Of a stretch of DNA of 64,000 bases, positions 2,743-60,837 are shown piece by piece; the first letter of the stretch is position 1, and the number at the start of each line of letters is the position of its first letter. Position numbers and translations under genes: made by a program. The notes beneath the pieces were generated by a model. That model had not been told where the DNA came from and searched no databases. It worked only from the letters and a program-made list of their open reading frames with translations. Location: contig DASZCN010000101.1 of the NCBI GenBank assembly GCA_035943095.1, positions 19,614 through 83,613 of the forward strand, in the 5' to 3' direction. Origin of the DNA: Gemmatimonadales bacterium. Lineage in GTDB: Bacteria > Gemmatimonadota > Gemmatimonadetes > Gemmatimonadales > GWC2-71-9.

Positions 2743-3492
2743 CTAGGCCGTCGCCGCCGCCAGCGCCTCGGCGTCGATGTCGAAGTTCGCGGAAACCCTC
2801 GCGACGTCGTCCATCTCTTCCAGCGCTTCGATGAGCTGGAGCAATCGTTTCGCGTCCTTGCCGTCCACCTTCACGGTGCTCTTGGGGATCATCGCGATCT
2901 CGGCGGTCTGGGTCGGGATCTGCTTGCCCTTGAGCCGCTCCGTAATCTGATGCAGCTGGTGCACCGGACCAGTAATAAGGAAGGCGTCGCCGTCGCGTAC
3001 CATGTCCTCCGCTCCCGCATCGAGCGCCACCTCCATGACCGCGTCCTCGGCGGCGCGGCCGGCATCCACCGTGACCTGCGCCTTGCGGTCGAACATCCAC
3101 GCGACGGAATTCGCCGCCCCGAGATTTCCTCCGTGACGTTGGAACACGTTGCGGATCTCGGCGACGGTACGGTTGGCGTTGTCGGTCGTCGCCTCGATGA
3201 AGATGGCCGCGCCCCCGGGCCCGTAGCCCTCGTAGGTGACCTCCTCGTACGTCACCCCCTCGAGCTCCCCGGTTCCTTTCTTCACGGCCCGCTCGATATT
3301 GTCGAGCGGCATGTTCTCGGTCTTGGCCGCGTCGATCGCCGTGCGGAGCCGGGCGTTGCCGCCGGGATCGCCTCCTCCCTGCTTGGCGGCGATCGTGATC
3401 TCACGGATGAGCTTGGTGAAGAGCGCGCCACGCCGCGCGTCGGTGACGGCCTTCTTCCGCTTGATCTGCTTCCATTTGCTGTGGCCGGCCAT
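2743..3492 (-). CDS. yebC: YebC/PmpR family DNA-binding transcriptional regulator
   Basis: MAGHSKWKQIKRKKAVTDARRGALFTKLIREITIAAKQGGGDP... is the canonical YebC N-terminus. I prefer ATG 3492 over the upstream GTG 3498. Confidence 0.92.
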   Translation of the reverse strand: MAGHSKWKQIKRKKAVTDARRGALFTKLIREITIAAKQGGGDPGGNARLRTAIDAAKTENMPLDNIERAVKKGTGELEGVTYEEVTYEGYGPGGAAIFIEATTDNANRTVAEIRNVFQRHGGNLGAANSVAWMFDRKAQVTVDAGRAAEDAVMEVALDAGAEDMVRDGDAFLITGPVHQLHQITERLKGKQIPTQTAEIAMIPKSTVKVDGKDAKRLLQLIEALEEMDDVARVSANFDIDAEALAAATA

Positions 3493-5497: not shown

Positions 5498-6489
5498 GCG
5501 ACGAGGCGCTCGACGGCGGCGACCACCTCGGCGGGCGTGATGTCCGCGAGGCAGCGGTGGTGCCCGAGTGGGCAGCTCGCTGTCCCGGTCGCCGAACAGG
5601 GGCGACAGTCGAGTGCCCGCTCGATGACGAGGGCGGGGGCGCGATACGGCAGGAAGCCGAATTGCGCAACCGTGGGTCCAAACAGAGCGACCACCGGCGT
5701 GCCGACGCCGGTGGCCATATGCATGACGCCGGTATCGCCCGAGACGACGACCCGCGCGCGCGCGAGCAGACCTCCGGTTTCCTGCAGCGAGCACTCGCCG
5801 GCGGCGCTTTCGGCGGCGCCCGCCGCCGCGAGCTGCTGCGCCAACCCGCGGTCGTCGGGCCCGCCCACGACGATCGGTCGGTACCCCGCGGCGCGGAGCC
5901 GCTCGGCCAGCGCGCTCCAGTGGGCGACGGGCCAGCGCTTGGTGGCGTGCGCCGCGCCCGGGGCGAGCGCGGCGACCCGGGCGTCCGCCAAGCCCCGCTC
6001 GGCGAGCCATTGCGCCGCGCGGTCGCGGGCCCCCGGTCCAAGGCAAAACTCAGGCGGGCCGCCGTCGGGCTGCGCGTCGAGCCGCCGGGCCGCCTCGAAG
6101 TACCGCTCGGCCACCGACGTGCGCCGCCGGTAGGCGTCGACCTTGGTGGCAATAAGCAGCGCGCGCGCCAGCTTCCGCTTGCGATACCCTGACCAGTGGC
6201 AGCGCACGAGCAGGCGCAGGCCCGCGCTGCGGATGCTGCCATGCAAGTCGAGCCCATGCGTCGGCGTGAGCGCCCGCAGTCGGCGCGCGAGGTGCCGGAT
6301 CGGCTCGTCGGGGTCCAACGCCACCACCTCGGCGACGTGCGGGTTGTCGGCGACGAGCGGCGCCATCGCGCGCTTGGTGACGTACACGAGCCGCGCCTCC
6401 GGATGGCGCCGGGCGAGCGCGCGCACGAGCGGCGTGGTGAGCAGGATGTCACCGATGGAGCTGAAGCGCACCACGAGGACGCACAGCAC
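5494..6489 (-). CDS. Glycosyltransferase family 9 (LPS heptosyltransferase-like)
   Basis: VLVVRFSSIGDILLTTPLVRALARRHPEARLVYVT... and C-terminal GDTGVMHMATGVGTPVVALFGPT are typical RfaF/WaaC-family motifs. Confidence 0.82.
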   Translation of the reverse strand: MLCVLVVRFSSIGDILLTTPLVRALARRHPEARLVYVTKRAMAPLVADNPHVAEVVALDPDEPIRHLARRLRALTPTHGLDLHGSIRSAGLRLLVRCHWSGYRKRKLARALLIATKVDAYRRRTSVAERYFEAARRLDAQPDGGPPEFCLGPGARDRAAQWLAERGLADARVAALAPGAAHATKRWPVAHWSALAERLRAAGYRPIVVGGPDDRGLAQQLAAAGAAESAAGECSLQETGGLLARARVVVSGDTGVMHMATGVGTPVVALFGPTVAQFGFLPYRAPALVIERALDCRPCSATGTASCPLGHHRCLADITPAEVVAAVERLVA

Positions 6490-6546
6490 GCCGCGAAATT
6501 AGGCTGTCGTTGCCCGCGTTCGCCAGTCGCCATTAGCTTTTGGCGT

Positions 6547-8136
6547 ATGCCGCGGCCGAAGACCATTCTCTGGGTGGACGACGAAGTCGAGGGGCTCGCC
6601 GCGCACCGGCGTTTCCTCGAGGACCAGGGATTCACCGTCGCCGCCGCGTCCCACGGCGACGATGCGCTCGCGTTGCTCCGCCGACAGGCCTACAGCATCG
6701 TGCTCCTGGACGAGCAGATGCCCGGGCGCCGCGGCCTCGAGCTGATCGGGGAGATCCGGACCATCGATCCCGCGATGCCCGTGGTGATGGTCACGCAGAG
6801 CGAGGACGAAGGAACGCTGCGCGAGGCGATCGGCATCGAGGTGGACGACTACCTCGTGAAGCCGGTCCAGCCGCGCCAGATCCTCTCGGTGATCACGCGG
6901 CTGCTCGAAGGCGATCGGATCCGACAGCAGCGGCTGGCCCGCGACTTCGTCACCCGGTTCCGCGAGCTCGAGGGACGTCGGGGAGCGACGCTCGCGTGGC
7001 GCGAGTGGATCGAGCTGGTGGCGGAGCTGGCGCGCTGGGATGTCCGCCTGGCGGCCTCGAACGAGCCCGGACTGTCGGAGGCGCTCCGCGCGTTGCAGCG
7101 CTCACTCCGCAAGGATTTCTCGGAATACGTCGCGCGGCAGTACCCCCGCTGGCTCGCGGCGCCCGAAGGGGATCGGCCACCGCTTTCCGTGGACGTCGGT
7201 GCCGAGTTTCTCGTTCCGGTACTGCAATCGACCGGGCGGGTGTTGTTCATCGTGATCGATTGCCTGCGCCTCGACCAGTGGGAGGTGCTGCGCGAGCTCG
7301 TGACCCCGCTGTTCGACGTCGAAGAGTCTCACTACTATGGCATTCTGCCGACGGCCACCCCGTTCGCGCGCAACGCAATCTTTTCGGGACTGTTTCCCAT
7401 GGAGATCGCGGCCCGCCACCCCGAGTGGTGGGGCCAAGCGTCCGACGAGGAAAGCCTCAACGCGCATGAAGCCGAGCTCCTCACCGAGCAGATCCGGGAG
7501 CTGATGCACCGGCCGGTGCCGGTGCGCTACGAAAAGGTGTTCAGCTCGGGTGAGGGCGACCTGCTCCGCCGGCTTCCCGCGCACCTCGCACAGGACGGCG
7601 TCACGGCCCTCGTGTTCAACTTCGTGGACCAGCTGACGCACGGTCGTTCCGAGAGCGCCATCCTCTACGAGGTGGCGCGGGACGAGGCCGCGTTACGGAG
7701 TCTCACGCGCACCTGGTTCGAGCGCTCGCCCGTGCTCGCGGCCCTGCGGGAGGCCGAGCGCCGGGGCGTGACCGTGTTGCTCACCACCGATCACGGCTCG
7801 ATCCACTGCGAGACCCCGGCGACCGTCTACGCCAAGCGGGACGCCACCGCCAACCTGCGCTACAAGTTCGGTGAGGACCTGAAGAGTGAGGACTCGCAGG
7901 CGGCGATCCAGGTGGAAGACCTGAAGAGCTTCGGCCTGCCGGCCATGGGGCTGGGCGTGCGCCTGCTCCTCGCAACGGCGGATCGGTTCTTCGTGTATCC
8001 CACCAAGCTGCGCGAGTACCAGGCGCGCTATCGGGGCTCGTTCCTGCACGGTGGGGTGACCCCCGAAGAGATGATCCTTCCGGTCGCGCTGCTCACGCCG
8101 AGGGGACGCACCGGGTCCAGCGGAGGCGGTCGCTAA
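6547..8136 (+). CDS. PorX-like response regulator: CheY receiver fused to a PglZ/alkaline-phosphatase-superfamily domain
   Basis: Receiver: MPRPKTILWVDDE...VLLDEQMPG...DDYLVKPV. PglZ-type part: VLFIVIDCLRLDQWEVL, TATPFARNAIFSG, NFVDQLTHG, LLTTDHGSIH. Start taken as ATG 6547 inside track ORF 6196..8136. Confidence 0.8.
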   Translation: MPRPKTILWVDDEVEGLAAHRRFLEDQGFTVAAASHGDDALALLRRQAYSIVLLDEQMPGRRGLELIGEIRTIDPAMPVVMVTQSEDEGTLREAIGIEVDDYLVKPVQPRQILSVITRLLEGDRIRQQRLARDFVTRFRELEGRRGATLAWREWIELVAELARWDVRLAASNEPGLSEALRALQRSLRKDFSEYVARQYPRWLAAPEGDRPPLSVDVGAEFLVPVLQSTGRVLFIVIDCLRLDQWEVLRELVTPLFDVEESHYYGILPTATPFARNAIFSGLFPMEIAARHPEWWGQASDEESLNAHEAELLTEQIRELMHRPVPVRYEKVFSSGEGDLLRRLPAHLAQDGVTALVFNFVDQLTHGRSESAILYEVARDEAALRSLTRTWFERSPVLAALREAERRGVTVLLTTDHGSIHCETPATVYAKRDATANLRYKFGEDLKSEDSQAAIQVEDLKSFGLPAMGLGVRLLLATADRFFVYPTKLREYQARYRGSFLHGGVTPEEMILPVALLTPRGRTGSSGGGR

Positions 8137-29959: not shown

Positions 29960-31297
29960 ATGGCTCGAAAACGCATCACGAGACGCAGGTTCGTCGGCGA
30001 CCTCGGCGCCGCCGGGCTTTTCACGATCGTGCCGCGCCACGTGCTCGGCCGAGGCCGTCGCGCGCCGAGCGATACGCTGAACGTCGCGTGCATCGGGGTG
30101 GGCGGCATGGGCAAGAACGATGTAAAGGGTATGGAGGGTGAGAACATCTATGCCCTGTGCGACGTTGATCTCAAGGCTGCCGAGGATTCATTCCAGGCTT
30201 ATCCGAAGGCGAAGCGCTACCGGGACTACCGCGAGATGTTCGACAAGGAGCGAAACAGCATCGACGCAGTGACGATCTCGACGCCGGACCACTCGCACAC
30301 GGCCGCCGGGCTGCTCGCGCTGAAGGTGGGCAAGCACACCTATATCCAGAAGCCGCTCGCCCGGACCATGGGCGAGGTACGGGCATTGGCGGACTACGCC
30401 CGCGCGCATCCTAAGCTCATGACCCAGATGGGCAACCAGGGACATGCGCGGGAGGGCGCCCGGCAGATCCGCGAATGGGTGGAGGCGGGCGCCATCGGCA
30501 CGGTGCGTGAGGTGCACTTCTGGACCAACCGGCCGATCTGGCCGCAGGCGATCGAGCGGCCGCTCGATGAGTACTACGTCCCGGCCACCCTCGACTGGAA
30601 CTTGTGGCTCGGCCCGGCTCCCGAGCGACCGTATCATCCCGCGTACGTGCCGTTCAAATGGCGGGGGTTTTGGGATTTCGGGACGGGAGCGCTGGGCGAT
30701 ATGGCGTGTCACATCATGGACGCGGCGTACTGGTCACTCGACCTCGGCTTCCCCTCGCGCATCGAGCCCGAATCGACTCCGCTCTTCAAGGAAACCGCAC
30801 CCGCCGGCTCGCGTATCACGTACACGTTCCCCGCAAAGGGAAACCGTCCCGAGGTGAGAGTCGTGTGGCGGGACGGCAGCCTGTATCCGGCGCGGCCGCC
30901 CGAAGTGACCGACGACGCGGCGTGGCCGGCCGATCGTGGGGGCGGGCAGCTCTGGATCGGGTCCGACGGCAAGCTCGTCGCCGGTACGTACGGCGACGAT
31001 CCCAGGGTGCTCGACGCCGCCAAGCAGGCCGAGCTCACGGCGCATCCTCCGGCCCAGAAATACCCGCGCTCCCCGGGCGTGTACGCCGAATGGATCGCCG
31101 CCTGCAAGGGCGGCGCGCCCGCGGGCTCGACGTTCGACGGGCATGCCGGTGGGCTCACGTCTATGGTGCTGCTCGGCTGTCTCGCGGTGCGACTGGGGCG
31201 CGTGCTCGAGACCAATCCGGCGACCGGCCAGGTGACCAACACTCGCGTTCCCGACGAGCTCGTCCGGCCAACGTATCGGTCCGGGTGGGTCCTGTAA
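29960..31297 (+). CDS. Gfo/Idh/MocA family oxidoreductase with twin-arginine signal
   Basis: MARKRITRRRFVGDLGAAGLF (TAT motif), then the Rossmann motif VACIGVGGMGKNDV. Confidence 0.85.
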   Translation: MARKRITRRRFVGDLGAAGLFTIVPRHVLGRGRRAPSDTLNVACIGVGGMGKNDVKGMEGENIYALCDVDLKAAEDSFQAYPKAKRYRDYREMFDKERNSIDAVTISTPDHSHTAAGLLALKVGKHTYIQKPLARTMGEVRALADYARAHPKLMTQMGNQGHAREGARQIREWVEAGAIGTVREVHFWTNRPIWPQAIERPLDEYYVPATLDWNLWLGPAPERPYHPAYVPFKWRGFWDFGTGALGDMACHIMDAAYWSLDLGFPSRIEPESTPLFKETAPAGSRITYTFPAKGNRPEVRVVWRDGSLYPARPPEVTDDAAWPADRGGGQLWIGSDGKLVAGTYGDDPRVLDAAKQAELTAHPPAQKYPRSPGVYAEWIAACKGGAPAGSTFDGHAGGLTSMVLLGCLAVRLGRVLETNPATGQVTNTRVPDELVRPTYRSGWVL

Positions 31298-31299
31298 CA

Positions 31300-32001
31300 A
31301 TGCTCGGCGGCTTGTCAGGCAGCCTCAGCGCTCACCCGTTGCTGGCCATAGTGACGTTGTTCGGGGCAGGCATCGTGACGAGCCTGACGCCGTGCATCTA
31401 CCCAATGATTCCGATCACGGCGGGCATTCTCTCGGGCGTGAGCGCGGGCCAATGGTCGCGCGCCCGGACGGCGCGACTCACGCTCGCGTACGTCACCGGC
31501 CTCGCGCTGTTCTACGCCATCCTCGGACTCATCGCCGGGCTCTCGGGATCTCTTTTCGGCACCGTGAGCGCGAGTCCCTGGGCCCGCCTCGCGATCGGGA
31601 ACCTCTTGCTCGTGTTCGGCCTTGCTATGCTCGATGTGATCCCGGTCTCCGCACCGCAGGGTCTCATGCGATGGGCGGGGAGTCTGGGCGGCGGGTCGTA
31701 TCCCGCCGTGTTCCTGCTTGGAGCGACGTCCGGCATCGTTGCCGCGCCGTGTGGTGCGCCGGCCTTCGCAGCGGTGCTCACCTGGGTGGCATCCACGCGG
31801 AGCGGACTGCTCGGATTCGTGTACTTATTCGTATTCTCACTGGGGATGACGGCGCTGCTGGTAGTGGTCGGCCTGTTCTCGGGCACCGTGGCAACGCTCC
31901 CTAAGGCAGGGATCTGGATGGTATGGATCAAGAAGGCCGCCGGCGTCATCATGCTGGCGATGGCGGAGTACTATTTCATCAAAGTGGGGCAAGTCTTGTG
32001 A
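31300..32001 (+). CDS. ccdA: Cytochrome c biogenesis/thiol-disulfide electron transporter CcdA (DsbD-core family)
   Basis: SLTPCIYPMIPI and AAPCGAPAF are the two conserved Cys-containing TM motifs. Six TM segments. Start taken as ATG 31300. Confidence 0.85.
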   Translation: MLGGLSGSLSAHPLLAIVTLFGAGIVTSLTPCIYPMIPITAGILSGVSAGQWSRARTARLTLAYVTGLALFYAILGLIAGLSGSLFGTVSASPWARLAIGNLLLVFGLAMLDVIPVSAPQGLMRWAGSLGGGSYPAVFLLGATSGIVAAPCGAPAFAAVLTWVASTRSGLLGFVYLFVFSLGMTALLVVVGLFSGTVATLPKAGIWMVWIKKAAGVIMLAMAEYYFIKVGQVL

Positions 32002-32492
32002 CGAAATACGGATTGGCAGTCGTCGCCGCGCTGGTCGCGCCGGTAACGCTCAGGGCCCAGGACATCGGCCTACCGCTGGGGACCAAGCCCCCGGCGGTCA
32101 CGGTGCAGGATCTCGACGGCAATGCCGTCGATCTCGGTCGCTACGTCGGCAAGCAGCCGGTGTTGCTCGAGTTTTGGGCTACGTGGTGCCCGTTGTGCAA
32201 GGCGCTCGAGCCCGCGCTCAAGGCGGCGCACGCGCGTTATGGCGCGACCGTCCAGTTCGTGGCCGTCGGCGTAGGGGTGAACGAGTCGCCGGCCTCGATC
32301 AAGCGCCACCTCGCGGACCACCCGCTCCCGTTTCCGGTCCTGTTCGACGCGAGTGGCGCGGCGGTCCGAGCCTATCAAGCTCCTACGACATCGTACATCG
32401 TCGTCCTGGACGGCACCGGGAAGGTGACCTACACCGGTGCCGGTACGGACCAGGACATTGTGGCGGTGCTACGCCACGTGGTCGGAAGCTAG
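31998..32492 (+). CDS. Periplasmic TlpA/ResA-like thioredoxin-fold thiol:disulfide oxidoreductase
   Basis: Signal peptide VTKYGLAVVAALVAPVTLRAQ, then LLEFWATWCPLCK (WCxxC). The GTG start overlaps the ccdA stop (GTGA at 31998-32001). Confidence 0.82.
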   Translation: MTKYGLAVVAALVAPVTLRAQDIGLPLGTKPPAVTVQDLDGNAVDLGRYVGKQPVLLEFWATWCPLCKALEPALKAAHARYGATVQFVAVGVGVNESPASIKRHLADHPLPFPVLFDASGAAVRAYQAPTTSYIVVLDGTGKVTYTGAGTDQDIVAVLRHVVGS

Positions 32493-32497
32493 CCGCC

Positions 32498-33079
32498 TTA
32501 CTCTCCCTCCGCGGTCCGCGGCGTGATCTTATCGATCGCGGCCGAGAGATCCTTGTAGGACTGCGGGTCGATCTCCCGGAACGGCGCCATCTTGTAAGCG
32601 ATTTTCCCGTCCGGTCCCACCACGAACAGGTTGCGCACATCCATGCTGTATTTCGGATTGTGGGCGCCGTACGTCTTGCCGACTGCGCCGCCCGAATCGC
32701 TCGCAAACAGGAACGGAAACTCGTCGTCATGAGACCATGCCGCGAGCGTATCCACCGGGTCCACACTGACGCCGATGAGTACCACGTTCCGCCCGTCGTG
32801 AAACAGCTGTGCGTACTGATCACGGTACGCATGCATTTGGATCGTTCAGCCCTTGGTTCGCGCCTTGTAGAAGAAGGCGAGGACGACCGTCTTCCCCTTG
32901 AAATCGCTCAGGTGGATGGGGGCCTTGAGCACGCCGAACCGCGTGGCCCCGGGGAGCGTGAAGTCGGGCGCCACCGAGCCGACGGCCAGCTCGGGAGCCG
33001 CGGGCTGCTGCGCGCCGATCCGCGACGCGGCCAGGGCGAGCGCGAGCGGGATGGCGAGCGGTGCTGCTTGGCGAATCAT
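32498..33079 (-). CDS. Secreted AhpC/TSA-BCP-type peroxiredoxin with in-frame TGA (32848-32846) at the peroxidatic position; predicted selenoprotein
   Basis: Track ORFs 32846..33079 and 32498..32836 share one frame. Joined reading: ...LSDFKGKTVVLAFFYKARTKG-TGA-TIQMHAYRDQYAQLF...VLIGVSVD...FPFLFASD...RNLFVVGPDGKI. The TGA sits at the C of the T-x-x-C motif. There is a signal peptide at the N-terminus and no Cys elsewhere. Confidence 0.65.
32810..32831 (-). promoter_or_regulatory. Candidate bacterial SECIS hairpin 3' of the in-frame UGA
   Basis: mRNA sense: UGA-ACGAUCCAAAUGCA-[UGCGUAC-CGUGAUCA-GUACGCA]. It has a perfect 7-bp stem and an 8-nt loop containing G. The stem starts 15 nt after the UGA. 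Confidence 0.45.
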
Positions 33080-33135
33080 GTCGAGTGTCCTCGGCAGAAC
33101 GGGTCACCCAAGGTACGCATGACGGTGAAACAGCG

Positions 33136-34383
33136 TTAGGGTCGGGGCCTCCACGTTCCTTTTGCGACGGCGGGCACGAATCCGCCGAGGCCCTCCGGGG
33201 GAAAATCGAGCGTGCGACCTTGCTCCGCGCTCATGTACGCCGCCATCAGCAGCTTCACGACCTCGAGGCCATCGCCGAACGTGAGCTGCGGCGGTTCGCG
33301 TCCCTGAAACGCGCGCACGAAGTGCCGGTCCTCCGCCTCGTAGCCGTATACGGCGGGCTCACCCGCGACCACGGGCATCAGCCCGATCTCGGCGTTTTGC
33401 TTCTCGACCAAGTCCTCACCCGCCTGACCCTTGACCTGCCGGCTGAAGAACAGCTTGAGCGGGCTCTCGAGGGAGTTCCACGCCATCGAGTATTCTGGGC
33501 CGAGTAGCTCGGCCGACAGGCGGAGGCCGGCCCCGACGAAGCTCCAGGATGTGGTCGCCTCGCCGATCACCGTGGCGCCGTCATCGGTCTCGAACTCGAC
33601 GGTGAGGCTCGCGAAGTCCTCGGCAGGATGCTTGGCGTAGTCGACCTCCCGGCCCATCGCCTGCCGCAGGCGCTCGGTGTATTCCGGTCGCGTCCACTTG
33701 AGGCTCGCGATGTGCCCGGTCACCCGCATGGGTCGGACGGAAGAGAGGGGCGCGCCGGGTTGAGTCAGCAGGTGACGCACGACGAGGCCCGAGTGGCACA
33801 TCATGTCGTTGAGCACGCCGCCACCCTGCAGCTCGCCCCGCCAGAACCACGGCATGTGGGGCCCACTGTGCTCTTCGGCGGCGCGGGCGAGGTAGGGACG
33901 GCCGGTGAGCGCGGCGCCGCGGGCCCAGATGATCGCGCGTCCCTGGGTCACGGCGGGCGCGAACACCTGGTTCTCGAGGTAGCCGTGTGTGACGCCCGCC
34001 TGTTTCGCCAGCTCGATCACCCGCGTCGCCTCGGCGACATTGCGTGCGAGCGGCTTCTCGCAGGCGATCCCGGTGAGCTCGGCTTTGCCGCGCGTGACCG
34101 TGTCCGCGATCTCCTCCATGTTGGCGACCCGCGTATCGTTCCGGCCACACAGCCATAGCGCATCGATCGCTGGGTCCGCGATCATCTCGGCGATGGAGCG
34201 GAACGGCCTCGCTTCGCCCAGGTCGAGCCGGCGGGCGAGGGCGGCCGTTTCGACGGCGCGCTTCGTGGTCGGGCTCCACACGCCGAGCACATCGGCGTCG
34301 CGCACGGTCTGGAATGCCTGCAAATGAAACCGCGCGTTGAATCCGCTCCCGACGAAACCCACGCCAAGGCGCTTATTCGTCAT
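33136..34383 (-). CDS. Gfo/Idh/MocA family oxidoreductase
   Basis: MTNKRLGVGFVGSGFNARFHLQAF... (Rossmann fold) and a C-terminal alpha/beta domain typical of the family. Confidence 0.85.
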   Translation of the reverse strand: MTNKRLGVGFVGSGFNARFHLQAFQTVRDADVLGVWSPTTKRAVETAALARRLDLGEARPFRSIAEMIADPAIDALWLCGRNDTRVANMEEIADTVTRGKAELTGIACEKPLARNVAEATRVIELAKQAGVTHGYLENQVFAPAVTQGRAIIWARGAALTGRPYLARAAEEHSGPHMPWFWRGELQGGGVLNDMMCHSGLVVRHLLTQPGAPLSSVRPMRVTGHIASLKWTRPEYTERLRQAMGREVDYAKHPAEDFASLTVEFETDDGATVIGEATTSWSFVGAGLRLSAELLGPEYSMAWNSLESPLKLFFSRQVKGQAGEDLVEKQNAEIGLMPVVAGEPAVYGYEAEDRHFVRAFQGREPPQLTFGDGLEVVKLLMAAYMSAEQGRTLDFPPEGLGGFVPAVAKGTWRPRP

Positions 34384-34389
34384 GCCTCG

Positions 34390-34989
34390 TCAATCCTCGT
34401 ACCGCACACCCAGCTTGGCGAGCGCGTCCGGCGGGCAGCCCTTCCACTCGGGAACGAACGTGTTGCCGATGTAACGCAGGTCGTGCACGCCGAGGCGACT
34501 GGAGAAGAACCCCGAGGCGGTGAGATCACGGAACCTGTTGAAGAACGCCACGCCGGAGGCGTGCTGCGGCTTGGCCTTGCGCGGCCATGCGATGTCATCC
34601 AGCACCGCGGCGCGCTCCGCCTCGCCGCAGGTGACGAAGGTCTTGCCGTACCGATCGTCGCATTCATGGTCGAGCCAGGCCAGGCCGCCGCGCACGGGGA
34701 CCTCGAGGTCGGGATCGTCGCCCAGCATGAAATCCATGAATTCGGGCACGCCCGCCTCCGTGGCGCTCCCGGAGCGCTCGTCTTTGGGAATGATCAGGTC
34801 CACCAGAACACGCACCGTCTCCCATTCGTGCGGCGTGAACTGCTTCGGCTCATATGGCGCGCCGCGAGCGAGCGCCTCGCGCGCTCGCGCCGAAGCTTCG
34901 CGCGCCGATTCGGGCGACCACCGAAGCGCTAGGGCGAGCGGGGCGGCTGCGAGCAGTCCGATGACTTCGCGCCGCTTCATGTCTCTCAT
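34390..34989 (-). CDS. Gluconate 2-dehydrogenase subunit 3 family protein (TAT signal)
   Basis: MKRREVIGLLAAAPLALAL..., FTPHEWETVRVLVDLIIPKDERSGSATEAGVPEFMDFML. This is the family signature, and the gene sits next to a GMC flavoprotein. Confidence 0.75.
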   Translation of the reverse strand: MRDMKRREVIGLLAAAPLALALRWSPESAREASARAREALARGAPYEPKQFTPHEWETVRVLVDLIIPKDERSGSATEAGVPEFMDFMLGDDPDLEVPVRGGLAWLDHECDDRYGKTFVTCGEAERAAVLDDIAWPRKAKPQHASGVAFFNRFRDLTASGFFSSRLGVHDLRYIGNTFVPEWKGCPPDALAKLGVRYED

Positions 34990-35215: not shown

Positions 35216-36904
35216 TCACAGAGCCCGGTTCCTCATTTGATCGGCGATGTGCTCGCTCGTCCGCATGGCCAATGCGAGAATGGTCCATGTCGGATTCTTG
35301 TCCGCCTGCGACACGAACGGTCCTCCATCGGCGACGAACAGGTTCTTGCAATCGTGCGCCTGGCACCAGCGGTTGACCACCGAAGTCTTGGGATCATCGC
35401 CCATGCGCACCCCACCGAGCTCGTGGATGATCGTGCCGCCGGCCGCGATGCCATAGCCCTGCTCGCGCGTCGGCATCGGGGCGAACACCTCGCCGCCCAT
35501 TTCGGCGATGAGCGCCCGAAACGTCTCCTGCATGTGCTTCACCTGCCCGTGCTCGTGGTCGGACCATTTCCAGTGGAATCGGAGCACCGGGATGCCCCAG
35601 CGGTCCACTACCGTGGGGTCGAGCTCACAATAGGTGTCGTCGTTGGGAATCATCTCGCCGCGGCCCGAAAACCCGATGCTCGCGCCATAGTAGCGGCGGT
35701 AATCGTCCTTGAGCTGCTTGCCGTAGCCTCCCCCGGACGGGTAACGGTGGATGCCGCCCAGGAATCCGTAGGACGGCAGGTTTGAGCCGCCCCAGACCTC
35801 GATGTGGTAGCCGCGCGGGAAGTCGAGTTTCGCGTTGTCGAGCCACCACGGCATGTACAAATGCATGCCGCCCACGCCGTCGTGGTTGTGGGGGACGTGG
35901 TCCATCATCTTTGGGATGAACCCGGAGACATCCGTTCCCGTGGTGTCCGTGATGTAGCGTCCGACCACGCCACTCGAGTTGGCGAGGCCGTTCGGAAACA
36001 GCGTGGTCTTCGAGTTGAGCAACAGGCGTGCCGATTCGCAGGCGCTCGCGGCCAGGACCACGACCCGGGCCCGCACGCGGGAGTCGGCCCCGGTGGCCTT
36101 GTCGATATACGCCACGCCCGTCGCCCGGCCGTTGGAATCGACGGTCACCTCGCGCGCCATCGCGTTGGTCATCAGCGTGAGCTTCCCCGTCGCCAGCGCC
36201 GGCGCGATCAGCACATTCGTGGACGTGAAGTTCGCGTTGACGCGGCAGCCGCGGTTGCACTGGCCGCAATAGTGGCACGCGGCCCGCCCGTTCACGGGTC
36301 GCGTGAGGATGGAGAGGCGCGCGGGAATGCAGGTGACGTGCAGCTTGTCGGCCGCCTGCTTCACGAGCAGCTCGTGGCAGCGAGGGCGGGGGGGCGGCAG
36401 AAAAAGGCCGTTCGGTTCGTTCGGCAGGCTCTCCTTGCTGCCGAACACTCCGATCAGCCGGTCGACCTCGTCGTAATAGGGGGCGACGTCGTCGTAGGCG
36501 ATCGGCCAATCGTCGCCCAGCCCGTCCCGGCTCCTGCGCTTGAAGTCGTAGGGTCCGAACCGGAGCGAGATGCGGCCCCAGTGGTTGGTTCGGCCGCCAA
36601 CCATGCGCGCCCGCCACCAGCTGAATTCCGTGCCGTGCGCGCGCGTGTACGGCTCGCCCGCGATCTCCCATCCGCCGATGCAGGCGTCGAATTCGCCGAA
36701 CGGCCGATCGCGCGTGGACGCGCCGCGCCGCGGCGATTCGTACGGCCACTCGAGCATCGCCGAATCCTTGGCGTTGTCCCAGGGCTGGCCGGCCTCCAGC
36801 ACGACGACGTCGGCCCCCGCCTTGGTGAGCATGTACGCCGCCATGCCGCCGCCGGCACCGGACCCGACGATACAGACGTCATACGTCTTGGGAGATGGGC
36901 GCAT
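35216..36904 (-). CDS. GMC family FAD-dependent oxidoreductase
   Basis: YDVCIVGSGAGGGMAAYMLTKAGADVVVLEAG (FAD motif) and a C-terminal GMC domain ...GGVRMGDDPKTSVVN...LFVADGGPF. Start taken as ATG 36904. Confidence 0.87.
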   Translation of the reverse strand: MRPSPKTYDVCIVGSGAGGGMAAYMLTKAGADVVVLEAGQPWDNAKDSAMLEWPYESPRRGASTRDRPFGEFDACIGGWEIAGEPYTRAHGTEFSWWRARMVGGRTNHWGRISLRFGPYDFKRRSRDGLGDDWPIAYDDVAPYYDEVDRLIGVFGSKESLPNEPNGLFLPPPRPRCHELLVKQAADKLHVTCIPARLSILTRPVNGRAACHYCGQCNRGCRVNANFTSTNVLIAPALATGKLTLMTNAMAREVTVDSNGRATGVAYIDKATGADSRVRARVVVLAASACESARLLLNSKTTLFPNGLANSSGVVGRYITDTTGTDVSGFIPKMMDHVPHNHDGVGGMHLYMPWWLDNAKLDFPRGYHIEVWGGSNLPSYGFLGGIHRYPSGGGYGKQLKDDYRRYYGASIGFSGRGEMIPNDDTYCELDPTVVDRWGIPVLRFHWKWSDHEHGQVKHMQETFRALIAEMGGEVFAPMPTREQGYGIAAGGTIIHELGGVRMGDDPKTSVVNRWCQAHDCKNLFVADGGPFVSQADKNPTWTILALAMRTSEHIADQMRNRAL

Positions 36905-36977
36905 GCGCCGGCAAACATCGGCCGAGCGGAGGGAGTCCGCCAGGTTCGGCGGGCGTTGACAGCACATTCGCCTGCTG

Positions 36978-57806: not shown

Positions 57807-60761
57807 TCAGTCGGAAACCGCCACGTGCGCCGGTTCGAGACGCACGGCGCAACACTTCAGCTCGGCCATCTTCGCGTACGGATCGAGCACGGGGTTCGTG
57901 AGCAGATTCGCCGCCGCTTCACGGAAATGGAACGGGACGAACACCTGGCCCCGGGCTACGCGCTCGGAAATACGGCACGAGCTCACCATGGTGTTTCGCC
58001 GCGACGTGAGTCGCACGAGGTCGCCGTCCTGCACCCCGAGCTCCCCGGCGTCATCGGGATGGATTTCGACGGTGGGGGTCGGCTCGCGCTGATCGAGGCC
58101 CGATGCGCGGCGGGTCATGGTTCCGGTGTGCCAGTGGTACAGCTGGCGTCCGGTGTTCATCACGAACGGATACTCATCGTCCGGTAGCTCGACCGGCGGG
58201 GCGTACTCCACCGGCACGAAGGTTCCACGGCCGTCCGCGGTAGGGAAGTGGTGGTCGAACAGGAATGACGTGCCGGGGGAGTCCGGAGTGGGCACGGGGT
58301 ACTGCAGTCCCGCTCCCTCGAGGCGCTCGTAGGTCACGCCTCGCCAGGACGGCGTCACCTGCGCGATCTCCCGCATCACGTCCTGCGCGGAAGTGAACGG
58401 CGTATCGAGGCCGAGGCGGTTCGACAGCTCGATCAGGATCTCGAGGTCGCCGCGCGCGTGCCCCGGCGTGGGGACCGCGGCGTGCGTGACCTGGATACGC
58501 CGCTCCGTGTTCACGAACGTGCCGGCTTTCTCGGCGAAGCTCGACCCGGGGAGCACGACATCGGCGTAGCGGGCCGTCTCGGTGAGGAACAGGTCGTGGA
58601 CCGTCAGGAACTCGAGCTCCTGGAACCAGTGCTCTGCGTGCGCGATGTCGGGGTCGGAGATGATCGGGTTCTCGCCCATGATGTACATCCCGCGGACGCC
58701 GCTCTCCTCCTTGACGATCTCGGTGACCATGAGTCCCTCATTGAGCGACAGGGACTCCGCGGGCACCTTCCACGCCTGGGCGTATTCCGCGCGGATGGCA
58801 GGATCCTTGACGGAGCGATAGTCCGTGTAGACGAACGGGATGGCGCCGACGTCCGACGCCCCCTGCACGTTGTTTTGGCCCCGGATCGGCATCATCGCGG
58901 CGCCCCAGCGCCCGATCATGCCGCAGCCGAGCATCAAGTTCAGGAGCGACGTCACGAGATCCGTGCCGTTGGCGTGCTGCGTGAGCCCCATCGCCCAGAG
59001 CGTGCTCGTGTTCGGCCCCTTCGCGTAGATCTCGGCCGCTTCGCGGATCCGGTCCGCGGGGACTCCGGTAATCTTGGCCGCGACCTCCGGGGTCATGGCC
59101 CGCACCGCCTGGCGCACGTTGTCGAAGTCGTGCATGCGATCGGCGATGAACCGGCGGTCCTCGAGACCCTGCGCGATGATGTGGCTCAACATCGCGTTGA
59201 ACAGAGCGACGTCCGTGCCGGGCTGCATCTGCAGATGAATGTCGGCCCGGCCCGCGAGTTCGGTCTTCCGCGGGTCGGCGACGATCAGGGTGACACCGCG
59301 CTCGTGGGCACGCTTGATCGCGGCGCCGAACACGGGATGCGACTCGGTTGTGTTCGCGCCGGCGATGAAGATGACGTCCGCCGCGTGCTCCACCTCCCGC
59401 ATCGAGCCTGACGCGGCGGACGTATTGAGCGCTCGCTGCATCGCCGCCACCGACGTGGAATGGCACAGGCGGGTGCAGTGGTCGATGTTGTTCGTCCCAA
59501 GCGCCGCCCGGAACATCCGCATCATGAGATAGTTCTCTTCGTTCGAGCACTTGGCCGACGAAAAACATGCGAGCGCGTCGCCCCCGCGCTCGCGCTTCAG
59601 GCGCGACATCTCCTGCGCCACGAGCTCCATCGCTTCGTCCCAGGTCGCCTCGCGGAACGGCTCGTACCACGCCGGCGGCGTGGCCACCCGGTCGCGAATG
59701 TCCAGGTCCACGCGCTCGAGCAACGGCAGGTCGCGCACCGCCTTGCCCACGGACCGCGGAGGCCCGGCGGGCTTCGGCCGTTGCCCCTCGCCCTCGATGG
59801 TTTGCCAGGGGCCGCCGCGCCGGTTCGGGCCCGTCCGGCCGCGCCAGATCCAGCGGCCGCTCGCCTTCTCCCAACCTTTACGAATCAGCGGCGCGGTCAG
59901 GCGGTCGTGGTGCTGGGGGAAATCGTAGCCGAACCGACCCTTGACGCACGTCGAACCCTGGTTGGGCGTGTTCAACTCGATGTCCGGGGATGTGACGCGG
60001 ACCACCGTGCGGTCAGCGACGTGCAGATCCACCTGGCAGCCCACGCCGCAGTACGGGCAGACCGAGCGGACCGTCTGCTCGGGGTGACGGATCTTGTCGG
60101 GCGCGAACCGCTCGCGCGGCATCACCTCGAAGATCGCACCGGTCGGGCACACGCGGACACACTCGCCGCACCACGTGCACCCCGCCTTGTCGGGGTCACC
60201 GTCGGCGCCCACAATGATCTCGGTGTGCTCGCCCCGCTGGCCGACGTCGAGCACCCCGACGACCTGGATGTCCTCGCATGCCCGCACGCAGCGGGTGCAG
60301 AGGATGCAGGTGCTCATGTCGTGCTGGATCATCGCGTCGCCCGGACGCTCGTCGCCGTGGCGCAGCGGCAGGTCGCGCTGCTCCACCACGGAGGGGACCA
60401 CGCCGTAGCGGACCACGTAACCCTCGAACTCGTTGCGCGGTCGGGCGCGACCGCCGTTTCTCAGATGGTCGCCGGCGTAGCGCTCGAGGAGCAGCCGGAG
60501 CACGCCCTTCCGGTTCTCGACCGCCGCGTGCGACTCCGAGTGCACGACCATCCCGTCGGCCACCTTCGTCGCGCACGCGGGCAGCAGTTTGCCCTGGCCT
60601 TCCACCGACACGAGGCAGATCCGGCAGTTACCGACGATCGACAGCTTGGGATACCAGCACAGGGTGGGGATGTCCGCGATTCCCGCCGTCCGCGCGGCCT
60701 CGAGAATCGTCTGTTCCGTATCGGCGGTGACCGAGCGGCCGTCGATGGTGAGCGTCGCCAT
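57807..60761 (-). CDS. fdhA: Formate dehydrogenase alpha subunit (NuoG-like 2Fe-2S/4Fe-4S N-terminus + Mo/W-bisPGD domain), Cys-type
   Basis: N-terminal: MATLTIDGRSV...NCRICLVSVEG. Two CxxCxxCxxxCP ferredoxin motifs. CPYCGVGC (4Fe-4S of the MopB domain). Active-site region: NIDHCTRLCHSTSVAAM. Start taken as ATG 60761. Confidence 0.9.
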   Translation of the reverse strand: MATLTIDGRSVTADTEQTILEAARTAGIADIPTLCWYPKLSIVGNCRICLVSVEGQGKLLPACATKVADGMVVHSESHAAVENRKGVLRLLLERYAGDHLRNGGRARPRNEFEGYVVRYGVVPSVVEQRDLPLRHGDERPGDAMIQHDMSTCILCTRCVRACEDIQVVGVLDVGQRGEHTEIIVGADGDPDKAGCTWCGECVRVCPTGAIFEVMPRERFAPDKIRHPEQTVRSVCPYCGVGCQVDLHVADRTVVRVTSPDIELNTPNQGSTCVKGRFGYDFPQHHDRLTAPLIRKGWEKASGRWIWRGRTGPNRRGGPWQTIEGEGQRPKPAGPPRSVGKAVRDLPLLERVDLDIRDRVATPPAWYEPFREATWDEAMELVAQEMSRLKRERGGDALACFSSAKCSNEENYLMMRMFRAALGTNNIDHCTRLCHSTSVAAMQRALNTSAASGSMREVEHAADVIFIAGANTTESHPVFGAAIKRAHERGVTLIVADPRKTELAGRADIHLQMQPGTDVALFNAMLSHIIAQGLEDRRFIADRMHDFDNVRQAVRAMTPEVAAKITGVPADRIREAAEIYAKGPNTSTLWAMGLTQHANGTDLVTSLLNLMLGCGMIGRWGAAMMPIRGQNNVQGASDVGAIPFVYTDYRSVKDPAIRAEYAQAWKVPAESLSLNEGLMVTEIVKEESGVRGMYIMGENPIISDPDIAHAEHWFQELEFLTVHDLFLTETARYADVVLPGSSFAEKAGTFVNTERRIQVTHAAVPTPGHARGDLEILIELSNRLGLDTPFTSAQDVMREIAQVTPSWRGVTYERLEGAGLQYPVPTPDSPGTSFLFDHHFPTADGRGTFVPVEYAPPVELPDDEYPFVMNTGRQLYHWHTGTMTRRASGLDQREPTPTVEIHPDDAGELGVQDGDLVRLTSRRNTMVSSCRISERVARGQVFVPFHFREAAANLLTNPVLDPYAKMAELKCCAVRLEPAHVAVSD

Positions 60762-60837
60762 GAGGTTGTGAAGATTAGAGCTCGAGCGCGGGCTGGGCAA
60801 CCGCGTACGCGGCTAACTACCGGAGTGCCAACGAGAA

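Follow-up and report, generated by a model that had tools for sequence, protein, structure and literature searches.

A predicted selenocysteine-containing peroxiredoxin lineage of the BCP/PrxQ type in Gemmatimonadota

Results

An in-frame TGA lies within a peroxiredoxin gene

On the minus strand of the window (the whole 64-kb stretch of Gemmatimonadales DNA that was analyzed), two open reading frames at 33079..32846 (77 aa) and 32836..32498 (112 aa) share a common frame. Only a TGA (32848-32846) and the codons ACG ATC CAA lie between them. An earlier note on this DNA had described the same layout and had proposed that reading through the TGA yields a 193-codon AhpC/TSA peroxiredoxin. Both points agree with our re-reading, as the Pfam AhpC-TSA match (PF00578) runs across the TGA from residue 33 to 162 (E = 1.3e-28; bit score 99.9, cutoff 26), and the gene structure is established on this basis. 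The features of the locus are listed in Table 1.

Table 1. Features at the peroxiredoxin locus, with positions numbered along the window.
Feature	Position	Strand	Description	Basis
CcdA-type (DsbD transmembrane domain) thiol-disulfide electron transporter	31300..32001	+		NCBIfam DsbD, E = 4.1e-41
TlpA/ResA-like exported thioredoxin	31998..32492	+	WCPLC motif; convergent with the peroxiredoxin gene
Predicted complete Sec-peroxiredoxin coding sequence	32498..33079	-	193 codons including UGA-78; stop TAA 32500-32498	Translation, Pfam, orthologues
Conserved active-site Arg149	32633..32635	-	DVRNLFVV	Aligned with the Arg before a beta-strand in 2ywn, 3hjp, and 2cx3
SECIS-type hairpin (predicted)	32810..32831	-	7-bp stem 32831-32825 x 32816-32810; 8-nt loop CGUGAUCA 32824-32817
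UGA codon 78, predicted to be read as Sec at the peroxidatic position	32846..32848	-		Aligned Cys in homologues
Active-site Thr75 of the TxxU motif	32855..32857	-		Aligned with the TxxC Thr of Sulfolobus and Aeropyrum Bcp
Tyr71 in place of the active-site Pro of PxxxTxxC	32867..32869	-		Alignment
Putative Sec-type signal peptide	33011..33079	-	Residues 1-23, MIRQAAPLAIPLALALAASRIGA; cleavage before QQ	Read from sequence
Shine-Dalgarno-like motif (putative)	33088..33092	-	GAGGA, 8 nt upstream of ATG 33079	Read from sequence

In GenBank the locus is entered as two proteins, HEV2751117.1 and HEV2751116.1, so gene callers do split it as the note had anticipated. Records in GenBank, JGI, and ENA for the exact window sequence and for many related clusters also consist of two fragments, labeled "hypothetical protein" and either "redoxin domain-containing protein" or "peroxiredoxin". 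JGI rendered the TGA as Trp in at least one confirmed case. The note had further described G/C-rich third codon positions in both halves. This holds in general but not just after the TGA, where CAA, CAT, CGT, and GAT end in A or T; these AT-ending codons coincide with the hairpin described below.

The N-terminus of the protein starts with basic residues, continues into a hydrophobic core (residues 5-19, mean Kyte-Doolittle 1.89), and has small residues at -1/-3. An equivalent signal-like N-terminus ending in A(A/G)AQ(Q/E) is present in all orthologues. It would be expected to direct export of the peroxiredoxin.

The TGA occupies the peroxidatic Cys column

Homologues read at full length as FFPKARTKG-C-TIQMHAYRDQY in this region, with the Cys in the TGA column. 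The TGA thus falls in the column of the peroxidatic Cys. Cys is found at this column in 86 full-length homologues, establishing a Sec/Cys pair. The claim that the TGA replaces the catalytic Cys of a T-x-x-C motif is therefore borne out by alignment with Cys-containing homologues of the BCP/PrxQ type, and Thr75 and residue 78 (U78) align with the TxxC of Bcp structures. The best structure matches are the Sulfolobus and Aeropyrum Bcp and the M. tuberculosis AhpE (E = 4e-16 to 1e-9). T75, U78, and R149 are kept in every orthologue aligned.

The read-through product of the window has no Cys, in line with the proposal that the UGA-encoded residue is its only redox center. The Cys count is likewise zero in all 38 Sec forms, and 85 of the 86 Cys forms have the peroxidatic Cys alone. 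With no Cys besides U78, an external thiol must recycle the enzyme, a 1-Sec mechanism. The protein scores 64.4 bits with the NCBIfam PrxU equivalog (NF040737, cutoff 270) and 62.7 bits with the BCP equivalog (NF006960, cutoff 140), below the cutoff in both cases. With a PrxU score so far under its cutoff, the protein belongs to a separate BCP-like lineage.

The Pro of the PxxxTxxC motif has been termed "absolutely conserved" in peroxiredoxins (PMC3322552) and is present in 83 of the 86 Cys forms. By this criterion of the peroxiredoxin active site the window protein deviates, as it has Tyr71. All 38 sequences in the alignment have Tyr, Phe, or Ile at the position, and the sequences from loci L038 and L083 also have Tyr. 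The more distant Sec forms L105 and L150 retain the Pro. Sec is not always paired with loss of the Pro, as L105, L133, L134, L150, and L152 are Sec forms that have it. A Tyr in place of the Pro might alter or weaken the peroxidase chemistry.

The protein could instead be a Sec-containing thioredoxin-fold protein other than a peroxidase, for example a periplasmic oxidoreductase acting on thiol-disulfide or selenenylsulfide bonds of proteins, with the Pro loss marking a changed function. The Tyr, Phe, or Ile of the Gemmatimonadales Sec clade and the NCBIfam scores under both equivalog cutoffs would fit such a role, and the linked TlpA and CcdA proteins (see below) also act in non-peroxidase pathways. 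Yet the Thr, the Cys/Sec column, and the Arg of the peroxiredoxin active site are all conserved, the close Cys forms and the distant Sec forms have the full PxxxTxx[C/U], and the protein has neither a CxxC-type nor a UxxC-type motif. We consider a non-peroxidase quite improbable.

The TGA is conserved across Gemmatimonadota

To the window protein we compared orthologues from 42 species-level Gemmatimonadota genomes, with every sequence coming from MAGs or metagenomes. Protein identity to the window protein ranges from 57 to 91%. In 41 of the 42 species-representative genomes this codon is likewise a TGA; the remaining one has TGC. Five more metagenome loci (L105, L133, L134, L150, and L152) have the TGA, and of these L105, L133, and L150 encode proteins that share about 51% identity with that of the window. 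The dN/dS is 0.12 upstream of the TGA and 0.22 downstream with a dS of ~1, values indicating that both halves are under purifying selection. Independent decay of the two halves, named in the note as the mark of a true pseudogene, was not seen: 41 genomes retain the TGA and, in a common frame, the two halves. The locus is not a pseudogene, given that the TGA and the hairpin are conserved and that each half is under purifying selection.

Were the TGA a true stop, the locus would be a pseudogene or would hold two independent small genes, one for a secreted peptide of 77 aa and the other for a C-terminal redoxin fragment of 112 aa that begins at ATG 32836. The two GenBank entries agree with this reading, although neither half by itself has a complete peroxiredoxin fold or a redox residue, and the retention of the frame in 41 species at that dS and those dN/dS values would be left to explain. 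The ATG does lie four codons past the TGA. However, it is the conserved Met of TIQM, which is present in the Cys forms too, and the codons before it (ACC AAG GGC TGA ...) are free to change synonymously and thus show no conserved ribosome-binding signal. No sel genes turned up in the 64-kb window or the ±10-kb flanks of the 42 relatives, which a true stop would allow, but it would leave a covarying hairpin at SECIS distance without a role. We regard this explanation as exceedingly improbable.

More window genes end normally in TGA than in any other stop (17 of 31), which rules out a genome-wide reassignment of the codon. Other in-frame TGAs within coding-like sequence were looked for in the window and the 42 loci, and only gene boundaries and antisense artefacts were found. 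A candidate in L017/L019 proved to be an artefact, running antisense to a UvrD-like helicase. Among database translations, W, L, and R occur at the TGA position. The DNA was read for one W form (L083) and one L form (L084), with the R and the remaining W and L forms taken as translations. The W of L083 is a TGA translated under another code. The L of L084 is a TTA on a contig with 1.6x coverage and an intact hairpin.

A conserved hairpin follows the TGA

A hairpin that the earlier note does not mention lies beyond the TGA, its stem beginning 14 nt 3' of the UGA. Published criteria for bacterial SECIS elements (bSECIS) are a loop of 3-9 nt with a G in its first two positions followed by G or U, a stem of 4-16 bp, a UGA-to-loop spacing of 16-37 nt, and an MFE <= -7.5. 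The window hairpin falls within all of these, with an 8-nt loop (CGU…), a 7-bp stem, a spacing of 21 nt, and an MFE of -8.6 kcal/mol. Folding the single sequence of 74 nt after the TGA gave nothing better than shuffles (z = +0.68), so support for the hairpin comes only from the cross-genome comparison. An Rfam scan of the whole window gave no match.

Across the genomes, RNAalifold independently recovers the same 7-bp helix. Codons +6 to +11 (GCG TAC CGT GAT CAG TAC) have near-zero synonymous variation, against about 0.4-0.5 pairwise elsewhere, and invariant columns make up five of six within the hairpin versus two of 57 outside (Fisher p = 1.7e-5). Compensatory changes are found at three base pairs: 18:39 (C-G, U-A, G-C, and A-U), 19:38 (G-C and U-A), and 20:37 (C-G, A-U, and G-C). 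No cell is unpaired, and none of 500 shuffles reached the covariation score. Some compensations change the amino acids on both sides, from Ala/Ala to Glu/Ser or Trp/His. These comparisons establish a conserved, covarying hairpin. The Cys-type genes L041 and L081 have GC-ending codons at the site and lack the hairpin, with MFEs of 0 and -0.7 versus -8.6 to -10.3. The hairpin most likely acts as a bacterial SECIS. It also shows with unusual clarity how an RNA structure within a coding region constrains both synonymous sites and amino acid choice.

In a metagenome scan for the apical hairpin in genes other than peroxiredoxins, the matches had no upstream in-frame TGA and resembled chance hits. 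The hairpin scan also brought up divergent Sec-peroxiredoxin lineages.

Selenocysteine machinery

We searched for the selenocysteine machinery in the 64-kb window and the ±10-kb flanks of the 42 relatives. ARAGORN found no tRNASec in the window or in these 42 loci. Using approximate E. coli queries for SelA, SelB, and SelD, tblastn against the window and all loci gave nothing below 1e-4 in the Gemmatimonadota loci. Pfam searches of 40 further predicted open reading frames in the window detected no SelA, SelB-wing, or AIRS domains. In the accessible literature we found no report of Sec use or of a selenoprotein in Gemmatimonadota (searched also as Gemmatimonadetes and Gemmatimonas). Soil Gemmatimonadales are largely aerobic bacteria.

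The UGA might also be read through without Sec, by a near-cognate or suppressor tRNA stimulated by the hairpin (inserting Trp, Cys, Arg, or Gly) or by a mis-charged tRNASec giving Cys when selenium is scarce. The inserted residue is not identifiable from sequence, and the search for sel genes, over the scope just given, is compatible with this. Against it, only Cys or Sec can be peroxidatic at the site and the homologues all have Cys there, while the hairpin has the loop size, the G[U/G] at the loop start, and the spacing expected of a SelB-type bSECIS. The database translations with W, L, or R would favor a different residue, but L083 has a TGA and L084 a TTA of low coverage that still precedes the hairpin. 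Read-through without Sec is improbable in our view. The in-frame TGA is almost certainly the codon of a catalytic selenocysteine.

CcdA- and TlpA-like proteins are encoded next to the peroxiredoxin

The gene convergent with the peroxiredoxin gene matches the NCBIfam ResA subfamily (E = 8.7e-18) and TlpA (3.3e-8). Its probable start is a GTG at 31998 that overlaps the stop of the CcdA gene (GTGA). The CcdA-type protein has two membrane Cys residues (LTPCIYP and AAPCGAP). In 32 Sec loci the peroxiredoxin gene adjoins a TlpA-like match, mostly with CcdA alongside, even where the other neighbors differ. The TlpA-like gene is co-directional with the peroxiredoxin in L037, and the linkage is also found at the Cys locus L081/L082. 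Five Sec loci with complete flanks (L022, L024, L034, L133, and L150) have no CcdA and TlpA nearby, so the proposed reductant is not universal.

[quoted passage not shown] By analogy, the linkage with CcdA and TlpA suggests an envelope peroxide-reduction relay like the Caulobacter ScsB-TlpA-PprX. We assign the TlpA-like protein as the likely partner because the gene linkage is conserved and because of this precedent.

Discussion

A single gene for a Sec-containing peroxiredoxin of the BCP/PrxQ type, decoded by way of a SECIS, exported, and recycled by TlpA and CcdA, is the explanation we favor for the locus as a whole, with a probability of roughly 0.87. Its steps of selenium insertion, export, peroxidase activity, and electron donation are predicted ones. 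The hairpin would recruit SelB with Sec-tRNASec to the UGA, where Sec would be inserted in place of a stop. The signal sequence would direct the protein to the periplasm by way of the Sec translocon. There H2O2 or organic hydroperoxides would be reduced by the selenolate of U78 (motif T-K-G-U), leaving it as a selenenic acid. An outside thiol would reset the enzyme, the best candidate being the neighboring exported TlpA-like thioredoxin, which the adjacent CcdA membrane transporter may keep reduced with electrons from cytoplasmic thioredoxin.

A bolder extension is that soil Gemmatimonadales keep Sec decoding and that this Pro-less, exported 1-Sec peroxiredoxin is the terminal peroxidase of a CcdA-TlpA-peroxiredoxin chain, the first selenium-dependent peroxide defense of a bacterial envelope. 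We offer it tentatively, at somewhat worse than even odds.

As at least 41 species-level Gemmatimonadota genomes carry the gene and their records are often split, the main practical point is annotation. NCBIfam has no model for the lineage, so a dedicated one would correct many records and flag genomes of Sec users. The locus would give bacteria that are abundant in soil an envelope selenoenzyme, tied to the reducing pathway of CcdA and TlpA. With Sec plus Tyr/Phe, Sec plus Pro, Cys plus Tyr/Phe, and Cys plus Pro forms, the family is a natural series for asking what Sec buys a peroxiredoxin.

Comparison with known systems

TxxU peroxiredoxins are an experimentally verified selenoprotein family (PMC13188914, PMC9312934). 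The prototype of the family (PF00578/COG1225) is PrxU of Eubacterium acidaminophilum. Its members are abundant in ocean metagenomes, with 253 sequences in the GOS survey, and arose several times by Cys-to-Sec conversion. The earlier note had remarked that such selenoproteins are already known from bacteria, and given how long established they are, the window gene represents a new lineage within a known family. It shares with the family the AhpC/TSA fold, a predicted Sec for the peroxidatic Cys in TxxU, a bSECIS-type hairpin immediately 3' of the UGA, and numerous homologues with Cys. Unlike the PrxU type, the window lineage has a signal-like N-terminus. The motif of its main Gemmatimonadales clade is [Y/F/I]xxxTxxU rather than PxxxTxxU, and the host is a soil Gemmatimonadota.

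The closest solved or known kin are the BCP/PrxQ proteins (Sulfolobus Bcp 2ywn/4g2e and 3hjp, Aeropyrum pernix 2cx3, and E. coli BCP) and the 1-Cys AhpE (1xvw). At Thr-x-x-Cys and at the Arg, the Sulfolobus and Aeropyrum Bcp align with the window protein. These Bcp have a resolving Cys at CP+5, whereas the window lineage has His, Asn, or Glu there and so departs from the atypical 2-Cys type of BCP/PrxQ.

With the fdhF-type SECIS of E. coli and the bSECISearch consensus, the window hairpin shares its place as a coding-region stem-loop just 3' of the UGA, a small loop starting N-G-U, the 21-nt spacing, and a stability reaching the threshold. Its primary sequence is unrelated to that of the fdhF SECIS, and we saw neither a bulged U nor a lower helix in it.

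The Caulobacter crescentus ScsB-TlpA-PprX relay has the same gene set, a PrxQ-type peroxiredoxin, a TlpA-like thioredoxin, and a DsbD-family transporter (PMC3322552). At the window locus the three genes of the putative relay are physically clustered. The transporter is of the minimal CcdA type and not an ScsB, and the peroxidatic residue is predicted to be Sec where PprX has Cys.

The split gene encodes a peroxiredoxin

On the minus strand the frame runs uninterrupted from an ATG at 33079 to a TAA at 32498, save for a single TGA (32848-32846). Translation bore out the earlier note's description of two ORFs in one frame (33079..32846, 77 aa; 32836..32498, 112 aa) separated by the TGA and ACG ATC CAA. 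Read as one, the ORFs give a 193-codon product with matches to Pfam AhpC-TSA over residues 33-162, across the TGA (E = 1.3e-28), and also to Pfam Redoxin. On read-through it is an AhpC/TSA peroxiredoxin (Prx), as proposed, and has zero cysteine, in agreement with the note's statement on the mature protein. The exact halves are in GenBank from a Gemmatimonadales MAG as HEV2751117.1 ('hypothetical protein') and HEV2751116.1 ('redoxin domain-containing protein'), the split by gene callers that had been foreseen. We interpret the locus as a genuine selenoprotein gene, mis-annotated, with a comparative signature of textbook quality.

Coordinates of features in the window
Feature	Position	Strand	Remarks
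CcdA-type DsbD transmembrane domain	31300-32001	+	two membrane Cys; E = 4e-41 to DsbD
TlpA/ResA-like thioredoxin	probable GTG start 31998	+	WCPLC
GTGA overlap	31998-32001	+	CcdA TGA stop with probable TlpA-like GTG start
Hairpin	32831-32810	-	U-GCGUAC-CGUGAUCA-GUACGC-A; fourteen nt past the TGA
Tyr71	32867-32869	-	in place of the PxxxTxxC Pro; from alignment
Sugar-oxidising enzyme cluster around the redox genes	29960-31297; 33136-34383; 34390-34989; 35216-36967	+; -; -; -
Molybdopterin oxidoreductase	57807-60800	-	997 aa
Receiver-PglZ fusion	6196-8136	+	646 aa

Homologues found by protein search number 2624, and of the 120 best, 86 are full-length proteins that carry Cys in the TGA column (...[K/R]AR[T]xG-C-T[I/V]QM...). 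Another 23, the closest relatives in this set (79-93% identical), are 110-199 residues long, mostly 112 aa, and start at the Met four codons past the TGA; all 23 appear to have been cut by gene callers at one same place. The best solved-structure matches are Sulfolobus Bcp (2ywn/4g2e, 3hjp), Aeropyrum pernix BCP (2cx3) and M. tuberculosis AhpE (1xvw). In the structure alignment the TGA is the peroxidatic Cys column, T75 the active-site Thr and R149 the conserved Arg, so both kinds of alignment place the TGA at the catalytic Cys of a BCP/PrxQ-type enzyme, as had been claimed. Unlike the archaeal Bcp enzymes, with a resolving Cys at CP+5, the window protein has His there.

A few protein records have other residues at this position. 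JGI record P0072 has Trp, and its DNA (L083 484-486, Ga0526441_067991) reads TGA, so the Trp evidently arose when the short contig was translated under another genetic code. A further JGI record, P0007, has Trp too. Full-length 'proteins' with Leu (P0002, P0004) or Arg (P0106) are also found. The DNA of P0002 (L084 332-334, ENA NODE_137323, coverage 1.6x) has TTA with the hairpin intact; the uninterrupted ORF was probably created by chance through a sequencing error.

The TGA and both halves are conserved

We scanned one genome per GTDB species and obtained 42 Gemmatimonadota loci, not counting L049, whose contig ends before the catalytic codon. Their proteins share 57-91% identity with the window protein. 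The catalytic codon is TGA in 41 of the 42, with TGC in L041 only. Across 37 non-redundant Sec loci (ungapped 94-codon alignment), dN/dS averages 0.12 over the 42 codons preceding the TGA and 0.22 over codons +14 to +51 after it, at a mean dS of ~1; selection has therefore retained both halves while more than one substitution accumulated per synonymous site. This alignment has zero frame-breaking changes around the TGA, and the decaying halves expected of a pseudogene were not seen in it. With the TGA itself kept, we reject that explanation. In two loci a stop 6 (L011, ~3160-3178) or 35 (L040, ~1099-1204) codons upstream of the TGA cuts the upstream frame; either a frameshift in the assembly or real decay of the N-terminal half in these two lineages could explain this. 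Genome-wide reassignment of TGA is ruled out because it is the commonest normal stop in the window (17 of 31 genes).

A candidate SECIS hairpin follows the TGA

The hairpin region is unremarkable on folding of the window sequence alone, and Rfam has no model for it. Among the 37 loci, codons +6 to +11 (GCG TAC CGT GAT CAG TAC) have essentially zero synonymous variation, against 40-50% of same-amino-acid pairs differing outside them; 5 of 6 columns are invariant in the hairpin versus 2 of 57 outside (Fisher p = 1.7e-5). CGT and GAT, both atypical at 68% G+C, are among the frozen codons. RNAalifold independently gave the same 7-bp helix. Its closing pair alternates between U-A (CAU…GCA) and C-G (AAC or CAC…GCG) with 0 broken cases in 39 sequences, and is G-C in L083 and A-U in L038/L039.

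Scanning metagenomes with the apical 16-mer, deliberately excluding the usual C…G flank and not demanding pairing, found more distant Sec forms, including L105, L133 and L150 (~51% identical to the window protein). Their lower stems have been rebuilt as GGA-GUAC…GUAC-UCC (Ala/Ala to Glu/Ser) or GUG-GUAC…GUAC-CAC (Ala/Ala to Trp/His). A representative 12-sequence alignment has 84/84 cells paired and double compensatory changes in 3 of 7 pairs; no shuffle reached its covariation score. The Cys-type loci L041 and L081 lack the hairpin (MFE 0 and -0.7, versus -8.6 to -10.3 kcal/mol) and have CGC and GAC at the hairpin codons. The published bacterial SECIS model has a loop of 3-9 nt, a stem of 4-16 bp, a UGA-to-loop distance of 16-37 nt, MFE <= -7.5, and G then G or U within the first loop positions (PMC13188914). 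The hairpin agrees with it throughout, and both loop variants, CGGGAUCA and CGUGACCA, are within the pattern.

Neither the 64-kb window nor the 10 kb on each side of the gene in 42 relatives encodes a tRNA-Sec, SelA, SelB or SelD, which is uninformative on the rest of a genome of several megabases, and no discussion of selenoproteins in Gemmatimonadota was found in the accessible literature. Sec insertion therefore rests on the three accepted computational criteria, the Sec/Cys pair, conserved flanks and a SECIS, all of which are unusually clear here. On these grounds the selenocysteine reading first made of the TGA was right, and we put the probability that UGA encodes Sec at roughly 0.87-0.9.

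The commonest bacterial selenoprotein is FdhA. The window's molybdopterin oxidoreductase, with N-terminal 2Fe-2S and 4Fe-4S domains, is built like the alpha subunit of an NAD-linked formate dehydrogenase and has no in-frame TGA. A second selenoprotein candidate (L017 ~14296, L019 ~10903), an in-frame TGA with conserved 'coding-like' sides, was rejected as a high-G+C artefact antisense to a UvrD-like helicase gene.

Replacement of the active-site proline

The Pro of PxxxTxxC is described as 'absolutely conserved' in the Prx literature. It is Tyr, Phe or Ile in 38/38 aligned sequences, with Tyr also in L038 and L083, and is present in 83 of the 86 Cys forms among the best 120 of 2624. Loss of Pro as a requirement for Sec is refuted by the distant Sec forms that retain it (L105, L133/L134/L150/L152) and by three Cys forms with Tyr or Phe (P0020, P0086, P0098). 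P0020 nests in the Sec clade of a crude neighbour-joining tree, suggesting a Sec-to-Cys reversion.

Probable export and possible redox partners

The N-terminus (MIRQAAPLAIPLALALAASRIGA|QQ) resembles a Sec-type signal peptide, as do its counterparts in all orthologues; none has a lipobox Cys or twin arginine. All 38 Sec forms are Cys-free, and the peroxidatic Cys is the sole Cys in 85 of 86 Cys forms. These counts make the subfamily 1-Cys/1-Sec, so that recycling of the selenenic acid depends on a thiol from outside the protein.

Immediately downstream, in convergent orientation, is a two-gene unit, CcdA-type then TlpA/ResA-like, whose GTGA overlap suggests translational coupling. In 32 Sec loci TlpA-like matches adjoin the Prx gene, mostly accompanied by CcdA, even where other neighbours are different. 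The unit is upstream and co-directional in L037, accompanies the Cys-form gene in L081/L082, and is missing from several Sec loci with complete flanks (L022, L024, L034, L133, L150). In Caulobacter the periplasmic PrxQ-type PprX draws its electrons from TlpA, and TlpA from the DsbD-family ScsB (PMC3322552). Given this precedent, the gene linkage and the need for an external thiol, we propose that electrons would pass from cytoplasmic thioredoxin through CcdA and the TlpA-like protein to Prx-SeOH; we lean slightly towards the pair being partners of the peroxiredoxin.

The sugar-oxidising cluster (a glycoside 3-dehydrogenase-like protein with a twin-arginine N-terminus, a Gfo/Idh/MocA-type protein, and a small twin-arginine protein then a GMC oxidoreductase) is syntenic only in the closest relatives and appears unrelated to the Prx. 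Elsewhere the window encodes a fusion of response-regulator receiver and PglZ domains.

Comparison with known selenoprotein families

'Peroxiredoxin (Prx), PF00578/COG1225, TxxU' is a listed, experimentally verified bacterial selenoprotein (PMC13188914, PMC9312934), with PrxU of Eubacterium acidaminophilum as prototype. A 2006 genome survey counted 12 members and inferred five Cys-to-Sec conversions, and the Global Ocean Sampling data contain 253 sequences, in line with the earlier note's statement that such selenoproteins are known from surveys. The window motif, in which the TGA was correctly taken as the C of T-x-x-C, reads TKGU, making the protein a member of this kind. With 64 bits against a cutoff of 270 it does not count as an orthologue of PrxU, and it is below the E. 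coli BCP equivalog cutoff (62.7 versus 140). No NCBIfam model captures it, which fits the GenBank labels. From these comparisons, we regard it as a predicted new lineage (soil Gemmatimonadales, probably exported, 1-Sec, CcdA/TlpA-linked) of a long-known selenoprotein family.
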